A stretch of 28,431 nt of DNA from Thermoplasmatota archaeon (GTDB lineage Archaea > Thermoplasmatota > E2 > DHVEG-1), in NCBI GenBank assembly GCA_036625995.1, contig JAZKSQ010000001.1:1-28431 (forward strand). Reading direction: 5' to 3'. Position 1 is the first letter of the stretch. Each line of letters opens with the position of its first letter. The notes below the pieces were generated by a model. It did no database searches. It was not told the DNA's origin and worked only from the letters and a program-made list of their open reading frames with translations. A program made the translations under genes and the position numbers. Below are positions 6,343 to 26,567 of the stretch, one piece after another.

Positions 6343-6780
6343 ATGGACAAACCCCTTCCTAAATCATTTAAAAAAGCACTATGGGTATATCATTGTAATT
6401 CAGGATCTTGTAATGGTTGTGATATTGAAATAATTGCTGCTTTATGTCCTCGTTATGATGTAGAAAGATTTGGAATCAAATTGGTAGGAACACCCCGTCA
6501 TGCTGATGTTTTACTTGCAACTGGCCCAGTTACACGTCAACAAGCTAAAAGAGTTAAAAGAATATATGATCAAATACCTGATCCAAAAGCAGTTATCTGC
6601 GTTGGAAACTGTGGCAATACTGGAGATGTATTTTATGAATCATACAATCTAGTTGGACCGATCGATAACATAATACCAGTAGATGTACATGTAATAGGAT
6701 GTCCTCCACGTCCAGAGGCGATAATTAATGCTGTGGCAAAAGCTTGGACTAAACTTGAAACTTTGGAGGCAAAAAAATGA
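6343..6780 (+). CDS. mbhJ: Group 4 [NiFe]-hydrogenase small subunit (MbhJ/EchC/NuoB-like)
   Basis: GSCNGCDIE, PRHADVLL.TGPVT, VGNC and GCPPRPE motifs. Confidence 0.9.
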   Translation: MDKPLPKSFKKALWVYHCNSGSCNGCDIEIIAALCPRYDVERFGIKLVGTPRHADVLLATGPVTRQQAKRVKRIYDQIPDPKAVICVGNCGNTGDVFYESYNLVGPIDNIIPVDVHVIGCPPRPEAIINAVAKAWTKLETLEAKK

Positions 6781-7322
6781 GCGGAAAAGATAAACTTAGT
6801 CCTGAAGAAATTGTCGATTATTTCAAGGAAGAGTTTTCAAAAAAAATTATGGATTCACGAATTGAAAGACATTCAATCGGTCCTAAAAAAAATGATCTAA
6901 TTCAAATATGGTTTAGGATAGATAGAGAAATATTTAAAGATATAGTTAAACATCTAATGAATTTAGAAGAATATCCTCATTTTGCAGTATCCTCCGGATA
7001 TGAATGGAAAGATAAAATAGAAATCGTAAATCATTTTTCGATATATAATGGTAACAAAGGGAAAGAAATAACTATAAACTTCACTGTTCCTCTTCCAAAA
7101 TCCGACCCAACTATAGAGACAATAAGCGATCTTATACCAGGTGCATTAATTTCAGAACAAGAAAAACAAGAAATGCTTGGTATAAAGGTTAAAAATATAC
7201 CAAAAGATAAACGTGTTTTTATATCAGAAGATTTTCCCGAGGAAATGTATCCTTGGAGAAAAGACGAAAAGTCAGCTGAAAAAATGGGTAGAAATCTGCA
7301 TGAGGTGAAAGAAAATGAGTGA
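6777..7322 (+). CDS. mbhK: Group 4 hydrogenase NuoC-like subunit (MbhK/EchD-like)
   Basis: Lies between the small and large subunits with overlapping stop/start codons. The EQEKQEMLGIKV...KRVFISEDFP..YPWRKD pattern matches the NuoC C-terminal motif. Confidence 0.85.
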   Translation: MSGKDKLSPEEIVDYFKEEFSKKIMDSRIERHSIGPKKNDLIQIWFRIDREIFKDIVKHLMNLEEYPHFAVSSGYEWKDKIEIVNHFSIYNGNKGKEITINFTVPLPKSDPTIETISDLIPGALISEQEKQEMLGIKVKNIPKDKRVFISEDFPEEMYPWRKDEKSAEKMGRNLHEVKENE

Positions 7323-8544
7323 AAACGTTGAAAAAGGAACATACAAGATCCCTATAGGTCCTATTCACCCTGCTTTAAAAGAACCAGTAATGTTTGGTTT
7401 TGAGATAGATGGAGAACGTATAGTTGATGCAGATGTTTATCTTGGACATGTCCATAGAAGTATAGAATGGACTGGAATGAGGAGAAATCCTATTCAAGTA
7501 TTATATCTCGCTGAAAGGATCTGTGGTATATGTTCTTATTGTCATCCAATGTCTTTTGCGCTCGCAGTTGAACGAATCTCTGACATTGAAGTACCTGAAA
7601 GAGCTGAATATCTTCGTGTAATACATGGCGAGCTTGAACGTATTTGTTCCCATACTCTTTGGGCCGGAGTAGCTGCCCACGAAATAGGTTTTGATAGCGT
7701 TTTATATTTCACCTGGCAGATCAGAGAAAAAGCATTAGATTTGACCGAATATTTAACCGGTAATAGAGTTACCAAGGCTATTACTATGATAGGGGGAGTT
7801 AGAAGAGATATAACTGAAGATATGCATCCTAAAATAAATGAAACATTAAAATTCTTAAAAGACAATTTCGAAAAATTGAGAAAGATATTTCTTGACGACA
7901 AAACTGTTAAGATTAGGACAAAAAACTGTGGAGTATTAACTAAAGAGAAAGCATTAAAATTATGTGCTGTTGGACCCACAACAAGAGCGTCAGGAGTTAA
8001 AAAAGACGTGCGTTTAGATCAATCCTATTTTGCCTATGATCAATTGGATTTTGACTATGTAACTCCAGATGTACTAACTGGAGAAGTAAATGGAGATGTA
8101 TATGATAGAATAATAGTTCGTTTATTAGAAGTGAAACAATCTATCGAATTAATAGAGCAAGCAGTAAAACAAATGCCTGAAGGAGACATAGTGGCTGAAG
8201 AAAAAATTGCAAAACTTCTATCACAATTAAAAAAAGTTGAGGGTGAAGGAGTAGGGAGAATGGAAGCTCCTCGTGGTGAAGTTATTCATTATGTTAAAAT
8301 GGATAAAAGCGAACATCCTTATTCATGGAAAGTTAGAGCACCCACCTATAACAATATATTACCTTGGATACCGATGCTTAAAGGCGAACAAATAGCAGAT
8401 ATTCCAATAGTTGCAGCTTCAACAGATCCATGTATGTCATGTACAAATAGAGTAGCTATTGCACATGAAGATAAAAAATATAAGCTATCAAAAGACCAGC
8501 TACATAAAATGAGTGTTGAAAAAACAAGGAGGCTAACGAAATGA
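7315..8544 (+). CDS. mbhL: Group 4 [NiFe]-hydrogenase large subunit (MbhL-like)
   Basis: IPIGPIHPALKEP, L1 ERICGICSYCH, EAPRGE, L2 DPCMSCTNR followed by a 30-aa extension resembling that of Thermococcales MbhL. All four Ni-ligating Cys are present. Confidence 0.92.
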   Translation: MSENVEKGTYKIPIGPIHPALKEPVMFGFEIDGERIVDADVYLGHVHRSIEWTGMRRNPIQVLYLAERICGICSYCHPMSFALAVERISDIEVPERAEYLRVIHGELERICSHTLWAGVAAHEIGFDSVLYFTWQIREKALDLTEYLTGNRVTKAITMIGGVRRDITEDMHPKINETLKFLKDNFEKLRKIFLDDKTVKIRTKNCGVLTKEKALKLCAVGPTTRASGVKKDVRLDQSYFAYDQLDFDYVTPDVLTGEVNGDVYDRIIVRLLEVKQSIELIEQAVKQMPEGDIVAEEKIAKLLSQLKKVEGEGVGRMEAPRGEVIHYVKMDKSEHPYSWKVRAPTYNNILPWIPMLKGEQIADIPIVAASTDPCMSCTNRVAIAHEDKKYKLSKDQLHKMSVEKTRRLTK

Positions 8545-8942
8545 AATTTTCTATGCTTCCACAGGTTCTAATTCAGCTTTTTAAAAAGCCGTTTACAAAT
8601 AAATTCCCTGCGAAATATATTCCTTCTTCAGTAACAAATTTTTTTAAGGATGTAGAAGAAGGAAAAAAGGAGATGATTCCACCGGTTGAAACACCCTCAG
8701 GTTTCAGAGGAAAAATAAAGTATGACAGGGAATCATGCATAGGATGTAAATTATGTATTAAGGTTTGTCCGACAGAAGCAATTGAATTCAAACCTGAAGA
8801 TAAAAAAATCAAGATTTATCTTTCAAGATGCTGTTTTTGCAGTCAATGCAATGATATATGTCCAAAAAACTGCCTTACAATGGGAGATGAGTTTCTTCTT
8901 GCCGATACAGACAAATACTCTGATGATTTGATAGTAGAATAA
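8541..8942 (+). CDS. mbhN: 2x[4Fe-4S] ferredoxin-like subunit (MbhN/EchF/NuoI-like)
   Basis: KPFTNKFP, FRGKIKYDRESCIGCKLCIKVCP and CCFCSQCNDICP. Confidence 0.9.
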   Translation: MKFSMLPQVLIQLFKKPFTNKFPAKYIPSSVTNFFKDVEEGKKEMIPPVETPSGFRGKIKYDRESCIGCKLCIKVCPTEAIEFKPEDKKIKIYLSRCCFCSQCNDICPKNCLTMGDEFLLADTDKYSDDLIVE

Positions 8943-13835: not shown

Positions 13836-15359
13836 ATGAGGGAATTAGATACTACCGAATCTGTCTGTCCTGCATGTTTTAAAGAAGGGAAAATAAATAA
13901 AATTCCTGCTAAAATAATAGAGGAAGATGGAAAAGTATACATTACTAAAAGTTGTTTTGATCACGGTGATTTTAAAGATATTTATTTTGGGGATGCAGAC
14001 TTATATAAAAAATGGATTAAATATAAGAGAGAAGGGACACACTCCCCTGATGTTAAAACTAAACTTTTTGATTATCCAAAACTTTATGATATCCATAAAT
14101 CACAGAGTGTTTTAACTAATTTATTGGTTACCAATAGATGTAACTTAAGATGTAGTTATTGTTTTATGAACGCAGGTGCAGCCGGTTATGTTTATGAACC
14201 AAGTTTAGAAGAAATCAAGGATATGATGTTAAAAGCTAGAAACGAAAGCCCTATTGGATCTAAGGCAATTCAAATAACTGGTGGTGAACCTACTGTCCGT
14301 GAAGACCTGTTAGATATCGTTAAGATGGCTAAAGATGTGGGATTTTCCCATGTTCAAGTTAATACTAATGGTCTAAAATTAGCCGAAAGCGCCGATTATT
14401 GTAAAAAACTTAAAGAAGCGAAAGTAAACACAATCTATATGAGTTTCGACGGTGTAACAAAAGATACAAACCCTTGGATAGAACAAAATAAAAAGGCTAT
14501 CGATAACCTTAGAAAAGCAAATCTTAGAGCTGTTCTTGTACCGGTTCTTATTGGAGGAAAAAATCTTCATCAAGCAGGAAAAATCGTACAATTCGCTATT
14601 GACAATATGGATATAATAAGAGGGGTTAACTTCCAACCGATATCATTTTGTGGTAGAGTAACTAAGATTAGAGATGAAACTAGAGAGAAACAACGTGTCG
14701 ATTATGTAAAAATGATGGAAGTATTAGAGGAAGAATTTGATAATATGATTTCTCGTGACGACTTCTATCCTGTTCCATTCGTGTTTCCAATATCAAAACT
14801 AATTGAAATGATTAAAGGCGAAACACAGGTAGAGTTTACTGCACATCCAGGATGTGGAGGAGCTACATATCTATTTGTTAAAGATGGAAAACCCCTACCG
14901 GTTACACGTTTCATAGATGTAGAAAGCCTTTTGGATTTTATTGATGAACAAAGTAAAACTAAAGGCCCTTTCAAGAAAATTAGAATAGCCTCTGCTTTTA
15001 TGAAGGATGTAGATAAATTCGTTGATTATGACAAAGCACCCGATGGTTTTAACCTTAAGAAATTATTAAAAGAAGCTGCTTTAGGAGGCAGCTACGATTC
15101 GCTGCGAGGTTTTCATTATAAGAGTCTATTCATTGGATCAATGTGGTTCCAAGATTCATTTAATCTCAATATAGATAGACTCAAAAGATGCGTTATACAT
15201 TATACTACTCCTGAAGGAATCATTCCGTTTTGTGCATATAACGGTTTAGGATACGGAGATATTATTAGAGAAAAACATTCTATACCTGTTAAGGAATGGG
15301 AAGAAAAAAACGATAAGAAACTGAAAGAAGATTTAAGAAAAGATGTGGCCTTGACTTAG
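13836..15359 (+). CDS. tes: Radical SAM enzyme, tetraether synthase (Tes/GDGT-MAS, MJ0619) family; atypical
   Basis: Rubredoxin-like CPAC...CFDH, radical SAM CNLRCSYC, GGEPT, RGVNFQPISF.GR, DFYPVP, HPGCG, MWFQD...RCVIHY and IPFCAYN all match my recollection of MJ0619. The CxxxCxxC upstream of the SAM motif is missing (see findings). Confidence 0.85.
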   Translation: MRELDTTESVCPACFKEGKINKIPAKIIEEDGKVYITKSCFDHGDFKDIYFGDADLYKKWIKYKREGTHSPDVKTKLFDYPKLYDIHKSQSVLTNLLVTNRCNLRCSYCFMNAGAAGYVYEPSLEEIKDMMLKARNESPIGSKAIQITGGEPTVREDLLDIVKMAKDVGFSHVQVNTNGLKLAESADYCKKLKEAKVNTIYMSFDGVTKDTNPWIEQNKKAIDNLRKANLRAVLVPVLIGGKNLHQAGKIVQFAIDNMDIIRGVNFQPISFCGRVTKIRDETREKQRVDYVKMMEVLEEEFDNMISRDDFYPVPFVFPISKLIEMIKGETQVEFTAHPGCGGATYLFVKDGKPLPVTRFIDVESLLDFIDEQSKTKGPFKKIRIASAFMKDVDKFVDYDKAPDGFNLKKLLKEAALGGSYDSLRGFHYKSLFIGSMWFQDSFNLNIDRLKRCVIHYTTPEGIIPFCAYNGLGYGDIIREKHSIPVKEWEEKNDKKLKEDLRKDVALT

Positions 15360-16212: not shown

Positions 16213-16953
16213 TTATTTTTTGATTTCTTTAGCTGGGACACCACCGTACATCTTTTCTTTTTTTAAAGTCATGTTTTTAGTAGCGAGACTTTTTCCTCCT
16301 AGTATAGCTCCCTCCTCCATGGTTACTCCAGGCATTATATATGATTCACCGCCTACTAAGCAATTCTTTCCAATTTTAACTTTTTTTACTATAAGATCAT
16401 TTTCTCCCAGATGGGCAAGTATGGAAGCTCCTCCTCCAATTAACGTATTATCTCCAATTTCAGTTACGCAGGGGTCGGCTATGTTTAATCTGCTTGCGAA
16501 AAAAACATTTTTCCCTATTTTCGCGCCAACTAGTCGCATATATTTTTTATATAAAGGAGGTATATGTAAAGCTTTCATTAAATTTATAGTTGGTCTATAT
16601 AGTATGAAATGAAGAGCAAATTTGAATGTATTTTTGTCTTCAATACTTTTTTTGTACACTCCTTCATCATATTGAATGTTAAATGATTTTATAAAATATC
16701 CAGAGAAGAGAGGTGTCCAAATAACTAATATGAAAAAAGCGATAAATAGAATAAATGGCAGAATGATTAATTCAATTAGCCAGATACCTTTAAAGAAATG
16801 AAGGAAACTTCCGACTATTAATATTGAGGGTAATGCAGAGATAGAAAAAACGACTAGTGGTGAAACAAATAATGCCATTATTCTTAATATACTTTTCAGA
16901 GAAATGTTAAACTTCTTTATTTCGCCTTTAAATGCCGTGTTTTTATTATACAT
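16213..16953 (-). CDS. Membrane-anchored hexapeptide-repeat (left-handed beta-helix) acyltransferase
   Basis: Two N-terminal TM segments, then LVGAKIGKNV, TEIGDNTLIGGG, VKIGKNCLVGG, ILGGKS and YGGVPAK. Confidence 0.85.
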   Translation of the reverse strand: MYNKNTAFKGEIKKFNISLKSILRIMALFVSPLVVFSISALPSILIVGSFLHFFKGIWLIELIILPFILFIAFFILVIWTPLFSGYFIKSFNIQYDEGVYKKSIEDKNTFKFALHFILYRPTINLMKALHIPPLYKKYMRLVGAKIGKNVFFASRLNIADPCVTEIGDNTLIGGGASILAHLGENDLIVKKVKIGKNCLVGGESYIMPGVTMEEGAILGGKSLATKNMTLKKEKMYGGVPAKEIKK

Positions 16954-17011
16954 ACAGAATACTTATAACTCTTAATAATTAATTTTCAAGAAATATAAAA
17001 AGAGGTTTTTT

Positions 17012-18868
17012 TTATCTTTTTATTTTTCCGAATAGACTTTTCTTCTTTTTGTTTTTAGTTTTGCTAAAATTACATGATTCGTTCATAGGACATTTTGAAC
17101 AATCAGGATTTTGTTTATGACAGAAATCTTTTCCTAAGCGGGCAAGAGATTGTAGATATTTATATACATTTTCGTTCATTTTCTCAGCTTCTTTAGTTAG
17201 TTTTTCCATAGCTTCATTAGCATCATCTGTAGAAACCCATCCTAGTCTATTTGCGACTCTTGATACATTAATTGCTTTTTTTGTAGGCTTTTTTTTCTTA
17301 TTTTGCTTATTTTTTGTATTTAAATCTGTTTTTTCTTTTTTAATGGGTTTCGAATCGGACGTTGCTGTAGGGACTCTAAGTTTTGAGCTGGATTTTCCAG
17401 AAGAAATTTTTATTGAGCCTCCGCCATGTTTTGTCTCCCTAGTTCTGATCTCAGTCATTATAGGCATCTGAAGGCCTGAACCAGAGATAAGGGCTATACC
17501 TACAGGTAAACGCTGTATTTCATCCGCTGTTTTGGTGGTTAAACCTTCAACTGATTGAACTATTGCCTTTATGTCGTTGGGGTTAGTTACCTTCAAAATC
17601 ATATGTGTGTTACATTGGCTGATAATGTTTTTATCGACTTTAGCTGGACGTTGACTGACTATACATAGACCCATACCAAATTTTCTGCCTTCTGAGGCTA
17701 CAGTTCTAAGCATTCCTGATGATACTGACTTTCCAAATCCTCTTTCAGGACAGTAATTATGTGCTTCTTCAACTACCATGAGAAAGGGTGGTACATTTCC
17801 AGATTTTCTTTCTTCAAAGAGTTCTTTTGTAAGTCTGGCTACTACTACACTTTGTACATCTGGTGGAACACCTTTCATATTTATTATAGAACACCTACCT
17901 TTTTTGACTATTTCATCTGGTGGTGTACCTTCTTCTGAAAATACATTTGTAGAAGCTAAAGATTCCAGGGAAGCGATAACATTCCATCTGGCGTTACTCT
18001 TACTTCTACTTACTGCATCCTTTATATCTTCAAGTGTATAGACTTCTTTGTATTCTTTTACTTCCTTTATAGCCTGATAGAGAACCCCTTTTTGAGGACC
18101 AGTAAGTTTTGCAGGTAGAAGATCTGTAATTTCGCCTGCTTCTAGATTCAAACCATTCATAGTAAGATGATCTATTTTACCTTTCTTTCCTACCGGAGAG
18201 AACTCTTTTATTTGTTTTTCATAAGAATTTTTCTCTACTCCAAATCTCTCCATATTTTTTGCTTCTTTTTTACTTTTGTTAGAAGTTGATAGTGATGCGT
18301 ATTCACCATGTGTATCTATTATAACCATCGGTATTTTTTGTTTTAAAAGTTCTTCTACGAGTACCCCACATGCATAGCTTTTTCCTCCCCCCGTTTTAGC
18401 AAGAATACATATATGTTTTTGAACTAATGAATCGATATTTAAGTAAACAGGCAGATCATGTCCTTTTAAAAGACCTATATATGCTCCGTCTTTCTTTGAG
18501 GAACTTAAGCCTAAAACATTTTTAATTAAATTTTCATCGGCATGTTTTATTGCACTTCCTGAATTAAAAGGAGTTCGAGGTGATTGTAAAAGTCCTTTTT
18601 TATCTCTATATCCTATAACATCTGCGAAGGCAGATATTTTAGTCTTCATTTCTGGTCCTTCTTCGTCTACCATAAGAGATGTCGCTTCGTCGAATTTTAG
18701 GTCTGAAATTTGTTTGATATCTATTACTTGAGCAAGAATTTCCCCTTCTTTATGTGGTGCAGTGATATAGTCAAATTTTTTTACTTTATGTCCATTTACT
18801 GCAAAATTAAAATCTGTTGATCCTACATCTCCATAAATAAATCCTACTACATCATTTTCTTGTTGCAT
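17012..18868 (-). CDS. HerA-like (DUF87/FtsK-HerA) P-loop ATPase with C-terminal EndoIII-type [4Fe-4S] module
   Basis: N-terminal HAS-barrel-like region, Walker A LAKTGGGKS, DTHGEY, Walker B LMVVEEAH, EGRKFG, SQRPAKV. C-terminal C-x6-C-x2-C-x5-C. Start set at ATG 18868, 5 nt after GGGGA. Confidence 0.88.
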   Translation of the reverse strand: MQQENDVVGFIYGDVGSTDFNFAVNGHKVKKFDYITAPHKEGEILAQVIDIKQISDLKFDEATSLMVDEEGPEMKTKISAFADVIGYRDKKGLLQSPRTPFNSGSAIKHADENLIKNVLGLSSSKKDGAYIGLLKGHDLPVYLNIDSLVQKHICILAKTGGGKSYACGVLVEELLKQKIPMVIIDTHGEYASLSTSNKSKKEAKNMERFGVEKNSYEKQIKEFSPVGKKGKIDHLTMNGLNLEAGEITDLLPAKLTGPQKGVLYQAIKEVKEYKEVYTLEDIKDAVSRSKSNARWNVIASLESLASTNVFSEEGTPPDEIVKKGRCSIINMKGVPPDVQSVVVARLTKELFEERKSGNVPPFLMVVEEAHNYCPERGFGKSVSSGMLRTVASEGRKFGMGLCIVSQRPAKVDKNIISQCNTHMILKVTNPNDIKAIVQSVEGLTTKTADEIQRLPVGIALISGSGLQMPIMTEIRTRETKHGGGSIKISSGKSSSKLRVPTATSDSKPIKKEKTDLNTKNKQNKKKKPTKKAINVSRVANRLGWVSTDDANEAMEKLTKEAEKMNENVYKYLQSLARLGKDFCHKQNPDCSKCPMNESCNFSKTKNKKKKSLFGKIKR

Positions 18869-18911
18869 CGCTATCCCCAACTATTAATGTAGATGAATAT
18901 AAATCTGTGTT

Positions 18912-19721
18912 TTATAGTTTTTGTAATTTTTCTGCTTCTTCTGTAGGTAGGTGTGCAAGTATTTTTAAAGCTTCAATTTCTTTAAAATGAAGTCGTCCCG
19001 GAACCACAAGTGATTGTAATGGTTGACCTAAATCTTTTTTCACTAAATTTTTTAATGAATCGGCAGATACCTCTGGTTTTTTTGATCCAGCGTTAGAAAC
19101 TACACAAATTATTGTATCAGAATTTATTATTTCTTTTTTTCTCTTTTTTTCCATCTTTCTTAGAATTTTAATTCCCTCTTTTGCAGTCATATATCTGCCT
19201 TCTTCTATTATGTCTAATAGTACAAGTGTATGAAGATTCATTTTTTTATTGCTCATTATTACGTCATATGGACTAGTAGGGAAATAGTCCCCTTGGGGAA
19301 AAACAAGAGTCGTCGATCGGCCGAACTTATAGTTTTGTAGTCCTAAAAGCCCTGGAACAGCAGTTGTAATGCTATTGCCATGGATCAACTCTGTATATAA
19401 GTCCTTTTTTATTGCTTTCATCCTGAGATCTATATGAGTGGTTGCAGTCATCGTGTCGCCTCCTGTTAGAAAAACTATTTTTTTTCCAGAAAGAGCTGGG
19501 CCAATAATTTTATCTCCGTTTTCAGTTTCTTTTCTATTTAATACATTTATCTTTTTACCAATTGTATTTTCTATTTTACTTATTGAACTTCCAACTAATT
19601 GAGATGTATAGAATTCCGCAAAAACTATGTCAGCTTTTTTTATTTCTTCGATGCCTTTTAACGAAATATCTTTTTCATCATAAAGCCCTAGTCCTATAAA
19701 AGTAAGTTTTCCTTTCTCCAT
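18912..19721 (-). CDS. dph5: Diphthine synthase (diphthamide biosynthesis methyltransferase)
   Basis: FIGLGLYDEKDISLKG, AEFYTS, GDTMTATTHIDL, GLQNYKFGRSTT, HTLVLLDI and LVVPGRLHFKE. Confidence 0.95.
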   Translation of the reverse strand: MEKGKLTFIGLGLYDEKDISLKGIEEIKKADIVFAEFYTSQLVGSSISKIENTIGKKINVLNRKETENGDKIIGPALSGKKIVFLTGGDTMTATTHIDLRMKAIKKDLYTELIHGNSITTAVPGLLGLQNYKFGRSTTLVFPQGDYFPTSPYDVIMSNKKMNLHTLVLLDIIEEGRYMTAKEGIKILRKMEKKRKKEIINSDTIICVVSNAGSKKPEVSADSLKNLVKKDLGQPLQSLVVPGRLHFKEIEALKILAHLPTEEAEKLQKL

Positions 19722-21791: not shown

Positions 21792-22766
21792 TCAGTATTT
21801 TGTTTTAAAACCGCATTTTTCACACCAAATTTTTCCTGAAAAATGATTTAATTTATTTCCACATTTTGGACAACTTGTTTTTTCAAGGAAATGTTCTAGC
21901 CATAAATCTCTAACTTGTTCCACATTTTCATTCTGTATTCTTTTCAACATCTCTTTTAATTCTTTTGTATCCGCCAACTCTTTTAGATTTTCATAGTTTA
22001 CTTTTTTAGATAATGGCTTTTCAAAATTATCCAAATAGATTTTCTGTGGTCCTCTTCTAGAATTTCTTTTATGTTTTTTACCTACTAGTAAAGCAGCCAA
22101 TAATACTCCTCCGGCAAGACCTCCAAGGTGTGCAAAATGTGCTGTAGAATCTTGTACGCCGACAATTACGATTACTGTCTCTATTACCGCAAACAGTAAA
22201 ACAGCATATATGACTTTTATTCTCCTGAAAATCATAATTATTCCCAATGGAATAGGGAGAACAACCTTATCATGTGGATACGAAAAAGCAAAGGCACCCA
22301 TGATTCCAAATATTGCTCCAGAGGCACCGATAAGTGAGGTAACAGAACCTAAGTTTAAAATAGAGTGAGTTAAAGTACCAATCACTCCAGATATAAGATA
22401 TATTCCTAAAAATTTTTTCCATCCAACTCTTTCTTCAAAATGCATTCCTATAAAAAAGAATATAAACATATTTCCTAGTATATGGAGGAATCCTCCATGA
22501 ATAAACATTGATGTAAATATCGTATATATATTTTCTAGCTGACCTATATTTAGATATACAGGTTTAAAACCCAATTCTAGGACGAGTCTACTAATTGAGC
22601 CGCCTTGAGGTAATGGAACCTGAAAAATTAGGGTTAATACAAAAACAAAAAAATTTGCAGCTATAAGAATATAAGTTATCATCCATTTTTTTAAAGCTCC
22701 AATTATGAGGGCTCCAACCATTATGCATATTGCCACTATTGATTCAGGGTGCAGCATTAATTCCAT
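21792..22766 (-). CDS. Rhomboid intramembrane serine protease with C-terminal Zn-ribbon
   Basis: TSMFIHGG..HILGNM, GASGAI (catalytic Ser), AHFAHLGG (catalytic His); C-terminal CPKC-x12-CEKC. Confidence 0.92.
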   Translation of the reverse strand: MELMLHPESIVAICIMVGALIIGALKKWMITYILIAANFFVFVLTLIFQVPLPQGGSISRLVLELGFKPVYLNIGQLENIYTIFTSMFIHGGFLHILGNMFIFFFIGMHFEERVGWKKFLGIYLISGVIGTLTHSILNLGSVTSLIGASGAIFGIMGAFAFSYPHDKVVLPIPLGIIMIFRRIKVIYAVLLFAVIETVIVIVGVQDSTAHFAHLGGLAGGVLLAALLVGKKHKRNSRRGPQKIYLDNFEKPLSKKVNYENLKELADTKELKEMLKRIQNENVEQVRDLWLEHFLEKTSCPKCGNKLNHFSGKIWCEKCGFKTKY

Positions 22767-25700
22767 TTTCGTTTTCTCCAGTCTCTTACTATTATTAATA
22801 CAGTTAAAAGGTATATGGAAGTAATATAAATAGTGTTTTTATTGGAAAATATTAAAAGTTTTTTTCCTTTCTCTTTGTAATTATTTTTTACATTACTCGT
22901 TTTTATATTCCAATCATATTTAAACGTGGATTTAAAATAGGAAGTTATTTCCTTATCTTTTATTATTACCCCTGTTTCTCTGTTTTTTAGAAAAGAATTA
23001 CTATTCCAATTTATACTACCTATAAAAACACTTTTGTTATCGACGATTACGCCCTTATTATGTATGTTTATAAAAGGAGTATTTTTTGTACCTATGAATT
23101 TAACTTTGATGTTTTTTTCTTCAAGGTAACCCTTAGTCTGTTTGCATTTCTTTATAGAATCTTCATAATTACTATTGTAGTTAATTATTATTCTGATATC
23201 TATCCCTTGTTTTGATTTTGATACTAATTCTTTTAATAAAGGATTGATTTTTCCGTCTGTCCAATTTTTGTATATGTAGAGTTGTTCGATGTATATGCTT
23301 TCCTCTGCGTTTTTTATCATATTCAGAATAGAAATTAGGCTATTATCAGGTGAAAAAACGGGTGTTATGCTGATATTTTTTTCAAAATACTTAGATTTTT
23401 GTTTTGGTTTATATGAACCACTAATCTTTTGTTTTTTTGTATCTATTCTGTAGGGATTTACTTTTATTGTATCTACATCTCGGCTGTCATGTCTTTTTGG
23501 ATTCCAATCATCTAAAAAAACTTTTTTGAAGTAATTAGAGATTACTTTATTTTCAATGCATATACCCCATTCACGGTTTCCATATGTCGGTTCAAAAGGA
23601 TATCCTTCCTCTACAAAATTACAACTTCCAATAATTAATGTTTCATTGTCAATTATAATATATTTTCCATGATTGAAAGTATATCTTTTGTAGATTTTTC
23701 GATCTTTAACAGACCTTAGAGCCCGTATTTTTCCGCCGTGGTCTCTAATTTTAGATAAAACATATTTTTGTTTTTCTGAGATTCCCCCTACAGGCGATAC
23801 TTCTAGCAATATTTTTACAGAAACATTTCTACTTAAGGCTCCAATTATTTCATCGAGGATGAAAATACTTTCGAATTCATACATATTGATATAAATGGAG
23901 CTATTAGCTTTTCTGATTTGATTAATTAGTACATCATAGCTACAATCAGGTGAAACAAAAGTAGTGATATTTGAATTTAAAGTAAATTTTGAGGGATTAA
24001 ATCTTGATTGACCTATCTTATATAACCTAGGGTTCCTCCAGTCAGATGCCTGATCTTGGTCGATATAGGATTTTTCATCATTATCTTCTTTTCTTTTTAG
24101 AATAATTCCTTCTCCAGAAAGAGAAATAGTTTTTCCGTTCCACTCCGAAGAGTTATAATTTTTTTTATTTCCATAAACAACTAAATCAATTGTATGATTG
24201 AAATCATTTTTGAGACTTACAAAATCCCCTATGTTGTTTAAATAAAAATCATTTCCTGTAATCATTTGACTAATATTTTCCATAGAATCTTCTAGATATT
24301 CAAAGTCGGGAAAGTAACCTGTTTCAAAATTATAATAATATGCGTTTTGTGTCACCACAAGAGTGGCATGTGGAGATATATATGTTTTATCTGGGAAAAT
24401 AATTTTATTTTGTTTAAAAAAAGGAGAAAAAGGATCATCAGTTATATACCATTTAGAAATATCTATTCTTTTTTTTGTAGGGTTATATATTTTAATAAAT
24501 TCATTTTTTAAATTAGGACGAGAATGATAATAAATCTCAGTAATCAATAATTGTCTTTCTTTACCATTTGGAGAAGTATCAAATATTTTTATATACTCCC
24601 TAATATCGTTATTAAGAGGATTTAATTCAAATTTATTTTCTGTTGAGTTTACAGTTATAAAAACTTTATATTCTCCCGGCTCGATATTAGATGTAAAAAT
24701 TTCGATGGTTGGATATTTCTGATATTTTCCAATATGTTCATAATATTCTGTTCCAATAATTCTTTTTGAGTATTTTTCTATGAGATAAAATCTAACATTG
24801 ACTTTAGAGCTTTTTTCATTTCCTCTATTCTTTAAAAATGCTTTTATTTTGATTTTTTCTCCCTGTCCAAAAAGTTTCTTGGCCTTATTTTTAGAATCAA
24901 GTATCTTTATTTTCTTGAAATCTAAATCAGGCCCTCTTGCCCTTATAGCCATCCTTCTAGTCTTTATTATATTGATATCATTTGTTGAAGAAATGTTGAT
25001 AGTTAATTCATTTTCTTTTGATATCACTCTGCCATAATTTTTTATTTCTAATGAAATATTTTTTTCTTTATTGGGTTCAAGATTAATTTTTCTTTTATTT
25101 AAATCAAGCTGTAATTGCCTATTTTTTTGTTTCAAATCAATTTTTATTGTATCTTCAAAATCGCCTGTATTTTTTATTGAGATTAAAATACTCTTTTTTT
25201 GATTTTTTCTCAAAAAAATAATTTCTGGTGTTTTTTTGACTTTAAAATTATATCTACCTTGCTTTACAGATAGTTTATCCTTAATAATTTCTTTTTGTTT
25301 TGTAAAAATTCTTAGAGTATAATTATCTCCGACAGGGGCAGGCAATTTGTAATAACCATTTTTTGATATATGGCCCTCATCTATCTGATTGTTTTCTGTC
25401 CTGTAGATTGCTTTAGTAACATTATTCTTTGTAAGAAGTATGGTCTCATTTCCATATACTGTTTTATTGATCTTGGCTTCCCCGATTATAAATCCACCTG
25501 AAGTAGCATTTTTTGTAGAGTTGTCTAAATCTAAAAGAGCAACCTTTGTTGCGTCTTTATATATGTAATTCTCTTTTTTTATTTTAACAAATATATATGC
25601 GGAACTGCTGTTCTCTATATTTTTAATATAATGGTTATAGCCTTTACTTAATCTTAGATAAAAAATTTTTAAGAAACTGTCTTTGTCTTTTTTATTTGTC

Positions 25701-26563
25701 ATGTTTGTAAAATAATAGGAGTATTTCCAGCCTTTATTTTTTATCCAGGTTTGTGAACAAGGCCAAGTACTGGATTCGTTTTTCGAAATAAATACTTTAA
25801 ATTTAAGTGTTGAGTTTTTTTCAAAATCAGTAAATTTTATTTTTACAGCAAAGGGTACACTATATTTTTTATTTTTTTCAACTTTAGGTATAAACCTAGG
25901 GTATTTTTCAATTCTAATTTCTACAAAACTCTTTTTTTTATTTATTTTACCCGGAGTGGGTTTTTTTGATAAATAAAAATCTTTTATTGTATTGTTTTGA
26001 TCTGTTTCTTTTCTCCTGGCTAATGAATTCCCCTCTATAAATTTTTTTATAGGTTTTCCTGGAATATCCTTATAGTCTTTTCCCCATTCTAGAGAATCTA
26101 TTACATTATTTTTTTCGTCTAAAAGAATTAATTTATCTTGTTTATTTCCTAGACCATTTCCTATGCTTTTATCATCTGTACATAATTTTTTTGTTTCATT
26201 TGGTAAATCATATTTTTGGTATATTTTCGTTCCTTTATCTGTTATTATTGCGTATTTTTTAGGGTTAATAACTAAATTGTTTGACCCATACTTTTTATTT
26301 AACTCAATTTTATCTTTTCCATAATTGTCTTTTATTTTCCATCCGGTAATATTTATCTTTTTAGAAGTAGGGTTATACAATTCTAGCCATTCGTAATAAT
26401 TATCATTGTTTTTTGGATTGTACATCACTTCATTTATTAATATATGATTAAAACTTGAGTTGTTTTCGTTAGAAATGCTGATTGCAGATAGGTTAAATAA
26501 TAGTATTAAAAAAGTTAAAATTAGAAATATCGTTATTTTTGTTATTTTAAAGTTGATCTTTAT
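22757..26563 (-). CDS. Secreted, C-terminally anchored lamin-tail-domain / phospholipase D-superfamily protein (about 1268 aa)
   Basis: Two lamin-tail-like starts (ILINEVMYNP...EWLELYNP; LLITEIYY...EFIKIYNP), a CARDB-like domain (PDL...KAFLKNRGNEKS), two HKD motifs (HGKYIIID...GSCN; HNKGVIVD...GSINWN) and a C-terminal TM followed by RDWRKRKWN. The frame extends 45 codons upstream of the listed GTG through a signal peptide to ATA 26563. Confidence 0.85.
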   Translation of the reverse strand: MKINFKITKITIFLILTFLILLFNLSAISISNENNSSFNHILINEVMYNPKNNDNYYEWLELYNPTSKKINITGWKIKDNYGKDKIELNKKYGSNNLVINPKKYAIITDKGTKIYQKYDLPNETKKLCTDDKSIGNGLGNKQDKLILLDEKNNVIDSLEWGKDYKDIPGKPIKKFIEGNSLARRKETDQNNTIKDFYLSKKPTPGKINKKKSFVEIRIEKYPRFIPKVEKNKKYSVPFAVKIKFTDFEKNSTLKFKVFISKNESSTWPCSQTWIKNKGWKYSYYFTNMTNKKDKDSFLKIFYLRLSKGYNHYIKNIENSSSAYIFVKIKKENYIYKDATKVALLDLDNSTKNATSGGFIIGEAKINKTVYGNETILLTKNNVTKAIYRTENNQIDEGHISKNGYYKLPAPVGDNYTLRIFTKQKEIIKDKLSVKQGRYNFKVKKTPEIIFLRKNQKKSILISIKNTGDFEDTIKIDLKQKNRQLQLDLNKRKINLEPNKEKNISLEIKNYGRVISKENELTINISSTNDINIIKTRRMAIRARGPDLDFKKIKILDSKNKAKKLFGQGEKIKIKAFLKNRGNEKSSKVNVRFYLIEKYSKRIIGTEYYEHIGKYQKYPTIEIFTSNIEPGEYKVFITVNSTENKFELNPLNNDIREYIKIFDTSPNGKERQLLITEIYYHSRPNLKNEFIKIYNPTKKRIDISKWYITDDPFSPFFKQNKIIFPDKTYISPHATLVVTQNAYYYNFETGYFPDFEYLEDSMENISQMITGNDFYLNNIGDFVSLKNDFNHTIDLVVYGNKKNYNSSEWNGKTISLSGEGIILKRKEDNDEKSYIDQDQASDWRNPRLYKIGQSRFNPSKFTLNSNITTFVSPDCSYDVLINQIRKANSSIYINMYEFESIFILDEIIGALSRNVSVKILLEVSPVGGISEKQKYVLSKIRDHGGKIRALRSVKDRKIYKRYTFNHGKYIIIDNETLIIGSCNFVEEGYPFEPTYGNREWGICIENKVISNYFKKVFLDDWNPKRHDSRDVDTIKVNPYRIDTKKQKISGSYKPKQKSKYFEKNISITPVFSPDNSLISILNMIKNAEESIYIEQLYIYKNWTDGKINPLLKELVSKSKQGIDIRIIINYNSNYEDSIKKCKQTKGYLEEKNIKVKFIGTKNTPFINIHNKGVIVDNKSVFIGSINWNSNSFLKNRETGVIIKDKEITSYFKSTFKYDWNIKTSNVKNNYKEKGKKLLIFSNKNTIYITSIYLLTVLIIVRDWRKRKWN

Positions 26564-26567
26564 TTTT

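Follow-up and report, generated by a model that had tools for sequence, protein, structure and literature searches.

A HerA-type ATPase carrying an endonuclease III-type iron–sulfur module in Thermoplasmatota archaea

Introduction

The stretch of DNA analysed here (hereafter ‘the window’) comprises 28,431 nucleotides (nt) of a Thermoplasmatota archaeon (GTDB lineage Archaea; Thermoplasmatota; E2; DHVEG-1), namely positions 1 to 28,431 of contig JAZKSQ010000001.1 in assembly GCA_036625995.1. On its reverse strand lies a gene whose product of 618 amino acids (aa) joins an ATPase core of the HerA/DUF87 type to a C-terminal iron–sulfur (Fe-S) module of the kind found at the end of endonuclease III (EndoIII) and MutY. 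A first-pass annotation, made from the sequence letters and a list of reading frames, had described this protein as a HerA core followed by a linker and a truncated EndoIII-type cluster module lacking both the catalytic Asp and the helix-hairpin-helix (HhH) domain. That description is borne out by matches to Pfam and NCBIfam models, by alignments, and by the lack of any PF00730 match in the protein, and the C-x6-C-x2-C-x5-C spacing reported for its cysteines is reproduced exactly by translation. Here, we describe the protein (Table 1), the distribution of the fusion and the surroundings of the gene, and weigh what the module may be doing on a ring motor.

The gene and its product

A continuous open reading frame (ORF) extends over positions 17012–18880 of the reverse strand, with no stop codon or frameshift inside it upon translation, and closes with the stop codon at 17012–17014. 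A TTG at 18880 was considered as the start, but the ATG at 18868 was preferred, because full-length homologues (67–73% identity) begin at this same Met. Four parts can be distinguished in the product: the ATPase core, a variable linker of 45 aa, the [4Fe-4S] module, and a basic tail. In an alignment of 35 family sequences, mean pairwise identity is 0.79 in the core (residues 1–487; 486–489 aa), 0.24 in the linker (36–54 aa), 0.71 in the module (always 71 aa), and 0.40 in the tail (16–20 aa). The identity and fixed length of the module, set against the freely varying linker, point to strong constraint; that the fusion is conserved and kept by selection is firmly established.

Table 1. Features of the ATPase gene, its product and its neighbours (window positions unless a locus is named).
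Feature	Coordinates	Strand	Basis
HerA-paralogue ATPase with C-terminal Fe-S module, 618 aa	17012..18868	-	ORF list, translation, homologues with the same Met
N-terminal beta-rich, HAS-barrel-like domain, residues ~7-110	18539..18850	-	AlphaFold2 (AF2) beta strands 7-109
HerA/DUF87 RecA-like ATPase core, residues 130-483	17420..18481	-	PF01935 match
Walker A, A-K-T-G-G-G-K-S, residues 157-164	18377..18400	-	no variation in the 35-sequence family alignment
Walker B region, F-L-M-V-V-E-E-A-H, residues 362-370	17759..17785	-	E367, E368, A369 and H370 invariant
Lys/Ser/Thr-rich linker, residues 484-528, predicted disordered	17285..17419	-	AF2 predicted local distance difference test (pLDDT) <50 over 481-526
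EndoIII/MutY-type [4Fe-4S] module, 71 aa, residues 529-599, three helices and Cys loop	17072..17284	-	sequence and fold matches
Predicted cluster ligands C583-x6-C590-x2-C593-x5-C599	17072..17122	-	120/120 homologues
Basic tail with basic-aromatic end, residues 600-618	17015..17071	-	median net charge +6 over ~18 aa
Diphthine synthase-like gene (TP_methylase), upstream, 43 nt from ATPase start	18912..19721	-	Pfam
Membrane-anchored hexapeptide (LbH) acyltransferase, downstream, 58 nt past ATPase stop	16213..16953	-	Pfam Hexapep
DUF357 genes in compared loci (examples)	L020:10136-10435, L018:6740-7039, L080-L091		

The core is matched by Pfam DUF87 (PF01935), the central domain of HerA, over residues 130–349 (E 8.9e-37; 127.7 bits with a cut-off of 23.2), and ends in a conserved R-E-T-x-H-G-G; the Pfam match to HerA_C is weak. 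Walker A and B and SQRP motifs are invariant in the family, the profile of which finds Sulfolobus HerA (4d2i; E 1.8e-41) as its best solved relative. The two HerA equivalogs of NCBIfam, NF040819 and NF040937, are matched far below their cut-offs (148.3 versus 970 bits and 139.2 versus 800 bits, respectively), and the NCBIfam model of the DNA-translocating ATPase CedD matches the core at E 2.8e-30, again far under the cut-off of that model; matches to TrwB/TraG P-loop domains are weak. At the N-terminus, the HAS-barrel model PF09378 scores 16.5 bits here, under its cut-off of 25.2, and reaches E 1e-4 to 3e-4, likewise under the cut-off, in the relatives P0135 and P0237. Databases list a HAS-barrel for some of the homologues.

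A glycosylase-type cluster module without its catalytic part

Several independent comparisons converge on the origin of the C-terminal module. Residues 533–608 match positions 137–215 of the NCBIfam mutY model TIGR01084 (E 9.7e-8), and positions 139–192 of the nth model TIGR01083 are matched as well (E 1.3e-4). The Pfam model EndIII_4Fe-2S gives 13.5 bits against a cut-off of 20.5, and databases therefore show these proteins only as ‘DUF87 domain-containing’. In the PDB, a profile restricted to the module finds ROS1 (E 3.8e-9), EndoIII (9nzc; E 3.2e-7), and MutY (E 5.5e-4), and the module matches the genome’s own Nth at E 2e-9 with 29% identity. Modelled in isolation by AF2, it reaches a pLDDT of 81.5, and its best 48 Foldseek matches in the PDB are all EndoIII, MutY, MUTYH, ROS1, or thymine-DNA glycosylase, at template modelling (TM) scores by query of 0.5–0.6 and with E-values that are weak, as expected for such a small domain. 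The PDB entry 2abk aligns to this model with a root-mean-square deviation of 1.9 Å over 70 columns.

The module is thus colinear with the last ~70 residues of EndoIII, MutY, and ROS1, with which it shares the Cys spacing and a cluster-bracing Arg, and it has an R-[IL]-G-W motif in common with archaeal Nth. The helix ahead of the Cys loop reads K-A-I-N-V-S-R-V-A-N-R-L-G-W, the equivalent of P-I-D-T-H-C-H-R-I-P-N-R-I-G-W in the genome’s own Nth. Alignment to that Nth and to PDB chains places Ala532 at the position of the catalytic Asp, where at least 90% of family members have Ala. The family shows no variation at Arg537, the Cys ligands, Pro588, or Met595, and Arg537, Pro588, and Met595 are kept even across lineages whose cores share only ~50% identity. 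In MUTYH and MutY, a hydrogen-bond network leads from a cluster Cys through an Arg and an Asn to the catalytic Asp (PMC12000561). Mapped onto that network, the alignments indicate that the cluster side (Cys ligands and Arg537) is kept and that the chemistry side is gone (Asp to Ala).

The rest of the enzyme is missing too. A Pfam scan finds no HhH-GPD domain (PF00730) in the ATPase protein, and the catalytic Lys is absent along with that domain. The first-pass annotation had considered glycosylase activity unlikely; with HhH-GPD, catalytic Lys, and catalytic Asp all gone, it is firmly established that the protein cannot be a glycosylase. Because the same genome also encodes, at other places, an Nth that is intact (228 aa) and another HhH-GPD protein, the module is an extra copy; its alignments mark it as copied from an archaeal endonuclease III, of which it represents the final third. 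It probably binds a [4Fe-4S] cluster. In contrast to EndoIII, MutY, and ROS1, however, the domain stands alone at the end of an ATPase linker, without the HhH-GPD barrel and catalytic Lys, with Ala for Asp, and with a loop that is not basic. One lineage, represented by genome G151, has the spacing variant C-x5-C-x2-C-x5-C (L029:859-3003, forward strand).

Linker, tail, and charge

The linker is the part that varies most in length, from 36 to >200 aa across lineages; in families other than that of the window it is much longer, giving whole proteins of 669–831 aa. Such a disordered, length-variable connection argues for a tethered arm acting in trans rather than for a domain docked on the core.

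The tail, which ends in K-K-K-K-S-L-F-G-K-I-K-R here and has the family consensus K-K-G-L-F-x-R, is present in all 120 best homologues. Orthologues that lack the module (see below) end, in one family (f10), in an analogous basic-aromatic tail (K-F-S-F-R-F-G-K or R-R-L-L-S-R-F-K), and the tail is therefore older than the module or independent of it. Either the module was inserted between core and tail or it was lost from there, and the tree described below does not separate the two.

Charge is distributed unevenly over the C-terminal part: net charge is ~0 for the Cys loop (consensus C-H-E-E/D-N-P-x-C), ~+1 for the module, and ~+6 for the tail. In EndoIII and MutY, Arg and Lys residues of the cluster loop contact DNA. 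The first-pass annotation had pictured the module as DNA-binding; the idea of a DNA-binding loop like that of EndoIII is weakened because the loop here carries mostly acidic or neutral residues in their place, the basic residues not having been kept.

Distribution of the fusion

Sampled were 197 genomes of the same archaeal class, the families of which are referred to here by number (f1 being that of the window); several of the genomes with the fusion consist of a single contig. The module profile matches a frame of 600–830 aa in all 107 genomes of f1, and the fusion was also found in f2, f3, f5, f6, and f9 with the same profile and in f8 by direct inspection. In a phylum-wide sample of 251 genomes, searched with the module profile at E 1e-8 or better, no fusion was found outside the class: the matches there sit in frames of 205–376 aa, the size of glycosylases. 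The search for this domain architecture that the first-pass annotation had suggested thus finds a fusion conserved across an archaeal class, and the Cys motif is present throughout the 120 best database homologues.

Among 1.8 billion cluster representatives, only 20 reach E 1e-10 with the module profile; apart from P0133 and P0140, all are complete or fragmentary HerA fusions. Some apparent further architectures were set aside. P0137 and P0139 look like stand-alone modules but belong to the same HerA family, of which they represent C-terminal pieces; P0136, which shows no HerA core residues, is probably another such piece; and P0130, seemingly a ‘module plus transglutaminase’ fusion, reflects a frameshifted read-through from one gene into the next.

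The two exceptions deserve a separate description. P0133 (L047:1720-2649; 309 aa) has a different architecture, in which a small P-loop NTPase (Walker A G-G-R-G-K-G-K-S, with weak Schlafen-helicase, DUF815, and DnaC-like matches) is followed by a truncated EndoIII-type module with C-x6-C-x2-C-x5-C spacing and no basic tail. On these features it is, as far as one 4.2-kb metagenome contig can tell, a second, independent ATPase-plus-module architecture. P0140 (558 aa) is composed of two tandem repeats (~280 aa each) of an unannotated domain, each closing with a Cys loop like that of EndoIII; neither Pfam nor PHROG gives a match.

Relationship to canonical HerA and to NurA

One DUF87 gene, the one described here, was found in the window’s genome, which is 84% complete and in 212 contigs, and no match to NurA (PF09376) was found in that 84%-complete genome. 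A Rad50 zinc-hook model gave no match in the genome either and proved insensitive in a control. The earlier statement that no NurA, Mre11, Rad50, or other nuclease gene adjoins the ATPase gene agrees with a Pfam scan of the neighbours.

NurA is rare in the families closest to the window (3 of 107 genomes in f1, 0 of 8 in f2, and 0 of 2 in f3) and is found in 24 of 25 genomes of f4, all 4 of f8, 9 of 13 of f10, and 16 of 32 of f6. A simple exclusion, in which the HerA with the Fe-S module replaces NurA, was considered and rejected: NurA occurs in those 16 f6 genomes, and in five sampled genomes of f6 and f8 (G141, G151, G129, G126, and G040) the Fe-S HerA coexists with a HerA of the canonical type, which adjoins NurA in four of the five.

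In a quick maximum-likelihood tree of 483 core columns, the NurA-linked HerAs and two other DUF87 rows form one clade (Shimodaira–Hasegawa approximate likelihood ratio test [SH-aLRT] 95), and the Fe-S HerAs form the other, together with shorter proteins of f4 and f10 (SH-aLRT 84, short branches). These shorter orthologues (448–519 aa) lack the module and stop right after R-E-T-x-H-G-G. On the strength of this tree, the Fe-S HerA is a distinct paralogue, apart from the NurA-linked HerA. Its independence of NurA is, given the genome counts above, firmly established.

Two observations were made at loci of the module-less group. In the f4 genome G175, the orthologue (448 aa) directly trails a PAC2-family gene (E 3e-59; L039:2847-3614, reverse strand), and in G185, a similar frame of 258 aa occupies the PAC2 position.

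Gene neighbourhood

Directly upstream of the ATPase gene, the window has a diphthine synthase-like gene, which holds the same place in 28 of 41 compared loci, and a ZIP transporter gene is among the further window neighbours. Downstream, a protein with a Transglut_core domain is encoded in 28 of 30 loci of f1–f3, starting between −58 and +42 nt from the ATPase stop and mostly within 20 nt of it. The copy in G002, a genome of the same genus as the window’s, carries a lipoprotein-type signal (judged by eye). Beyond f1–f3, the transglutaminase-like gene is met again in f5 and the P0135 lineage. A second recurrent partner, a DUF357 gene of ~100 aa, overlaps or closely trails the Fe-S HerA stop in f5, f6, f8, and the P0135/P0237 lineages, and lies ~2.6 kb downstream in the f9 locus; literature searches for DUF357 returned only unrelated DUF357x items.

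The window has neither partner. The transglutaminase-like gene is missing from it, with a weak paralogue (E 1.1e-6) present only elsewhere in the genome, and no DUF357 gene was found in that genome. Synteny with G002, which has the lipoprotein gene, breaks right past the ATPase stop (from window positions 16954–17011 onward), and where relatives have the lipoprotein gene the window has the acyltransferase gene, which in some relatives is located ~3 kb further downstream. It looks as though the window has lost the lipoprotein gene by deletion or rearrangement. A second locus, L061, is also without the lipoprotein partner and has an intact ATPase gene.

The lipoprotein gene is often followed by the genes of ribosomal S12, S7, and elongation factor 2 (EF-2). 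The full series, which recurs among the compared loci (L053:6500-12000, L056, L059, L063, and L066), starts with diphthine synthase and continues with the Fe-S HerA, the lipoprotein, and S12–S7–EF-2, so that EF-2 and an EF-2-modifying enzyme flank the HerA/lipoprotein pair.

Comparison with known systems

Among characterized systems, the HerA of Sulfolobus solfataricus, which acts with NurA in end resection (4d2i), is alike in its DUF87 core, its Walker A/B and SQRP motifs, and presumably its HAS-barrel-like N-terminal domain. The protein described here differs in belonging to a separate paralogue clade that falls short of the NCBIfam equivalog cut-offs, in having no NurA adjoining it or found in the 84%-complete genome, and in its additional linker, Fe-S module, and basic tail. 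FtsK/SpoIIIE, CedD, TdtA, and the pumps of the VirB4/TraG type belong to the same ATPase superfamily, with scores far below family cut-offs; unlike FtsK/SpoIIIE, Ced, and conjugative pumps, the protein lacks a membrane-spanning domain and a DNA-recognition domain of the gamma type, and a Pfam scan finds no secretion or conjugation genes near it in the window.

A [4Fe-4S] cluster is also a structural element of XPD/DinG helicases, AddB, Dna2, and Cas4, in which the cluster domain is inserted in the catalytic core or packed against it. The module considered here differs from these in being tethered, separate, and derived from a glycosylase. To our knowledge, the EndoIII-type cluster domain has so far been known only within HhH-GPD glycosylases, for which it is still debated what the cluster does.

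The first-pass annotation knew of no description of this architecture, and our literature searches likewise found no paper on a HerA/DUF87 protein with an Fe-S or EndoIII domain; the fusion, of parts that are each of a known kind, is apparently undescribed. It would be the first stand-alone use of an EndoIII-type cluster domain, freed of catalysis and tethered to a motor, and could as such provide a clean system for the domain’s own role—whether it binds DNA, takes part in redox signalling, or is purely structural. The slowly evolving, NurA-independent HerA clade to which it belongs bears, moreover, on DNA-end handling or chromosome transport in Thermoplasmatota that are abundant in sediments.

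A possible mechanism and its alternatives

We tentatively favour a scheme in which the protein assembles into a hexameric ring motor of the FtsK–HerA superfamily and serves, independently of NurA, as an ATP-driven translocase of nucleic acid, most probably DNA. The six tethered Fe-S modules and their tails would be flexible arms for capture or anchoring that keep the ring close to its substrate or to the place where it acts, with polyanions being contacted mostly through the tail and less through the cluster loop. The [4Fe-4S] cluster would mainly be structural, stapling the arm into its fold, in which case the function of the arm would depend on cluster loading. Taken as a whole, this scheme falls a little short of an even chance in our estimate; DNA as the substrate, taken separately, we consider an evenly balanced proposition, and the role of the arms in capture is a possibility that we would place somewhat below even.

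Several points weigh against it. Neither a DNA-repair nor a nuclease partner is linked to the gene, the neighbours of which are housekeeping genes, the transglutaminase-like lipoprotein, or DUF357. The cluster loop is acidic or neutral where EndoIII and MutY have Arg or Lys, and the module is near neutral. The tail occurs without the module, and the two may therefore serve different purposes. Finally, the full-length AF2 model is of moderate confidence (pLDDT 66), and cluster binding, the hexamer, and the dependence on DNA are all predictions made from sequence.

The module could instead be a regulator or sensor of cluster loading, redox state, or O2 that, rather than binding substrate, gates the ATPase or the assembly of the ring, for instance when docked onto the face of the ATPase. 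This would fit a loop that has lost its DNA-contacting residues in a module whose cluster-bracing Arg and Cys ligands are invariant, and hosts that look anaerobic, with hydrogenase maturation genes in the window. The module-less orthologues of f4 and f10 are also what would be expected of an add-on regulator, since they imply that the motor can work without it. A linker of such variable length is, however, awkward for a precise intramolecular switch, and clusters of the EndoIII type are generally stable in air and, away from DNA, inert towards redox change. We regard a sensor as unlikely, though worth keeping in view; lesion sensing and redox or O2 gating in particular, as floated in the first-pass annotation, are pure speculation.

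Comparably unlikely in our view is a membrane-proximal pump, FtsK- or Ced-like, in which the tails would be weak amphipathic anchors with six-fold avidity and which would work together with the exported and presumably co-transcribed transglutaminase-like lipoprotein. The tail motif (K-K-G-L-F-x-R, R-R-L-W-x-R, or R-R-L-L-S-R-F-K), which presumably resembles the membrane-targeting tails of the MinD type, is conserved at the extreme C-terminus, including that of module-less orthologues; the lipoprotein gene is tightly coupled in f1–f3, and the core has its match to CedD, far below the cut-off though that is. Yet basic tails suit the binding of nucleic acid equally well, there is no transmembrane segment in the protein and no channel protein in the cluster of genes, and the gene is intact in the window and in L061 without the lipoprotein partner. 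Many of the neighbours, moreover, have ribosomal or translation roles, a sign that the gene may simply be co-located with housekeeping functions.

It is improbable, to return to the motor itself, that as the only DUF87-family protein found in the 84%-complete genome it is the lineage’s general chromosome or DNA pump—FtsK-like or a resection motor—tethered where it acts by six basic-aromatic tails, with the EndoIII-derived modules as a switch that ties recruitment or activity of the motor to the redox state of the cluster or to Fe-S supply, for instance through DNA-mediated charge transfer with glycosylases of the EndoIII/MutY type. Hardly more credible, and if anything less so, is a relic that holds Zn or no cofactor and persists as a folded spacer or a knob for protein docking: the EndIII_4Fe-2S score below cut-off, the C-x5-C spacing of one lineage, and a cluster that is predicted would allow for this, but the spacing is otherwise exact throughout the 120 homologues, and Pro588, Met595, and Arg537 remain invariant where cores have diverged to ~50% identity. 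An assembly chimera, that is, two unrelated genes joined by misassembly or frameshift in a fragmented, metagenome-type assembly, is excluded for practical purposes, because the same continuous ORF, uninterrupted by stops or frameshifts and with a strongly constrained module, recurs in well over 100 independent genomes, some of them single-contig.

Other features of the window

Elsewhere in the window, Pfam families identify a radical-SAM gene (within 13836-15359), HypC/HypD genes (within 6343-8942), and a rhomboid gene or genes (within 21792-26579).

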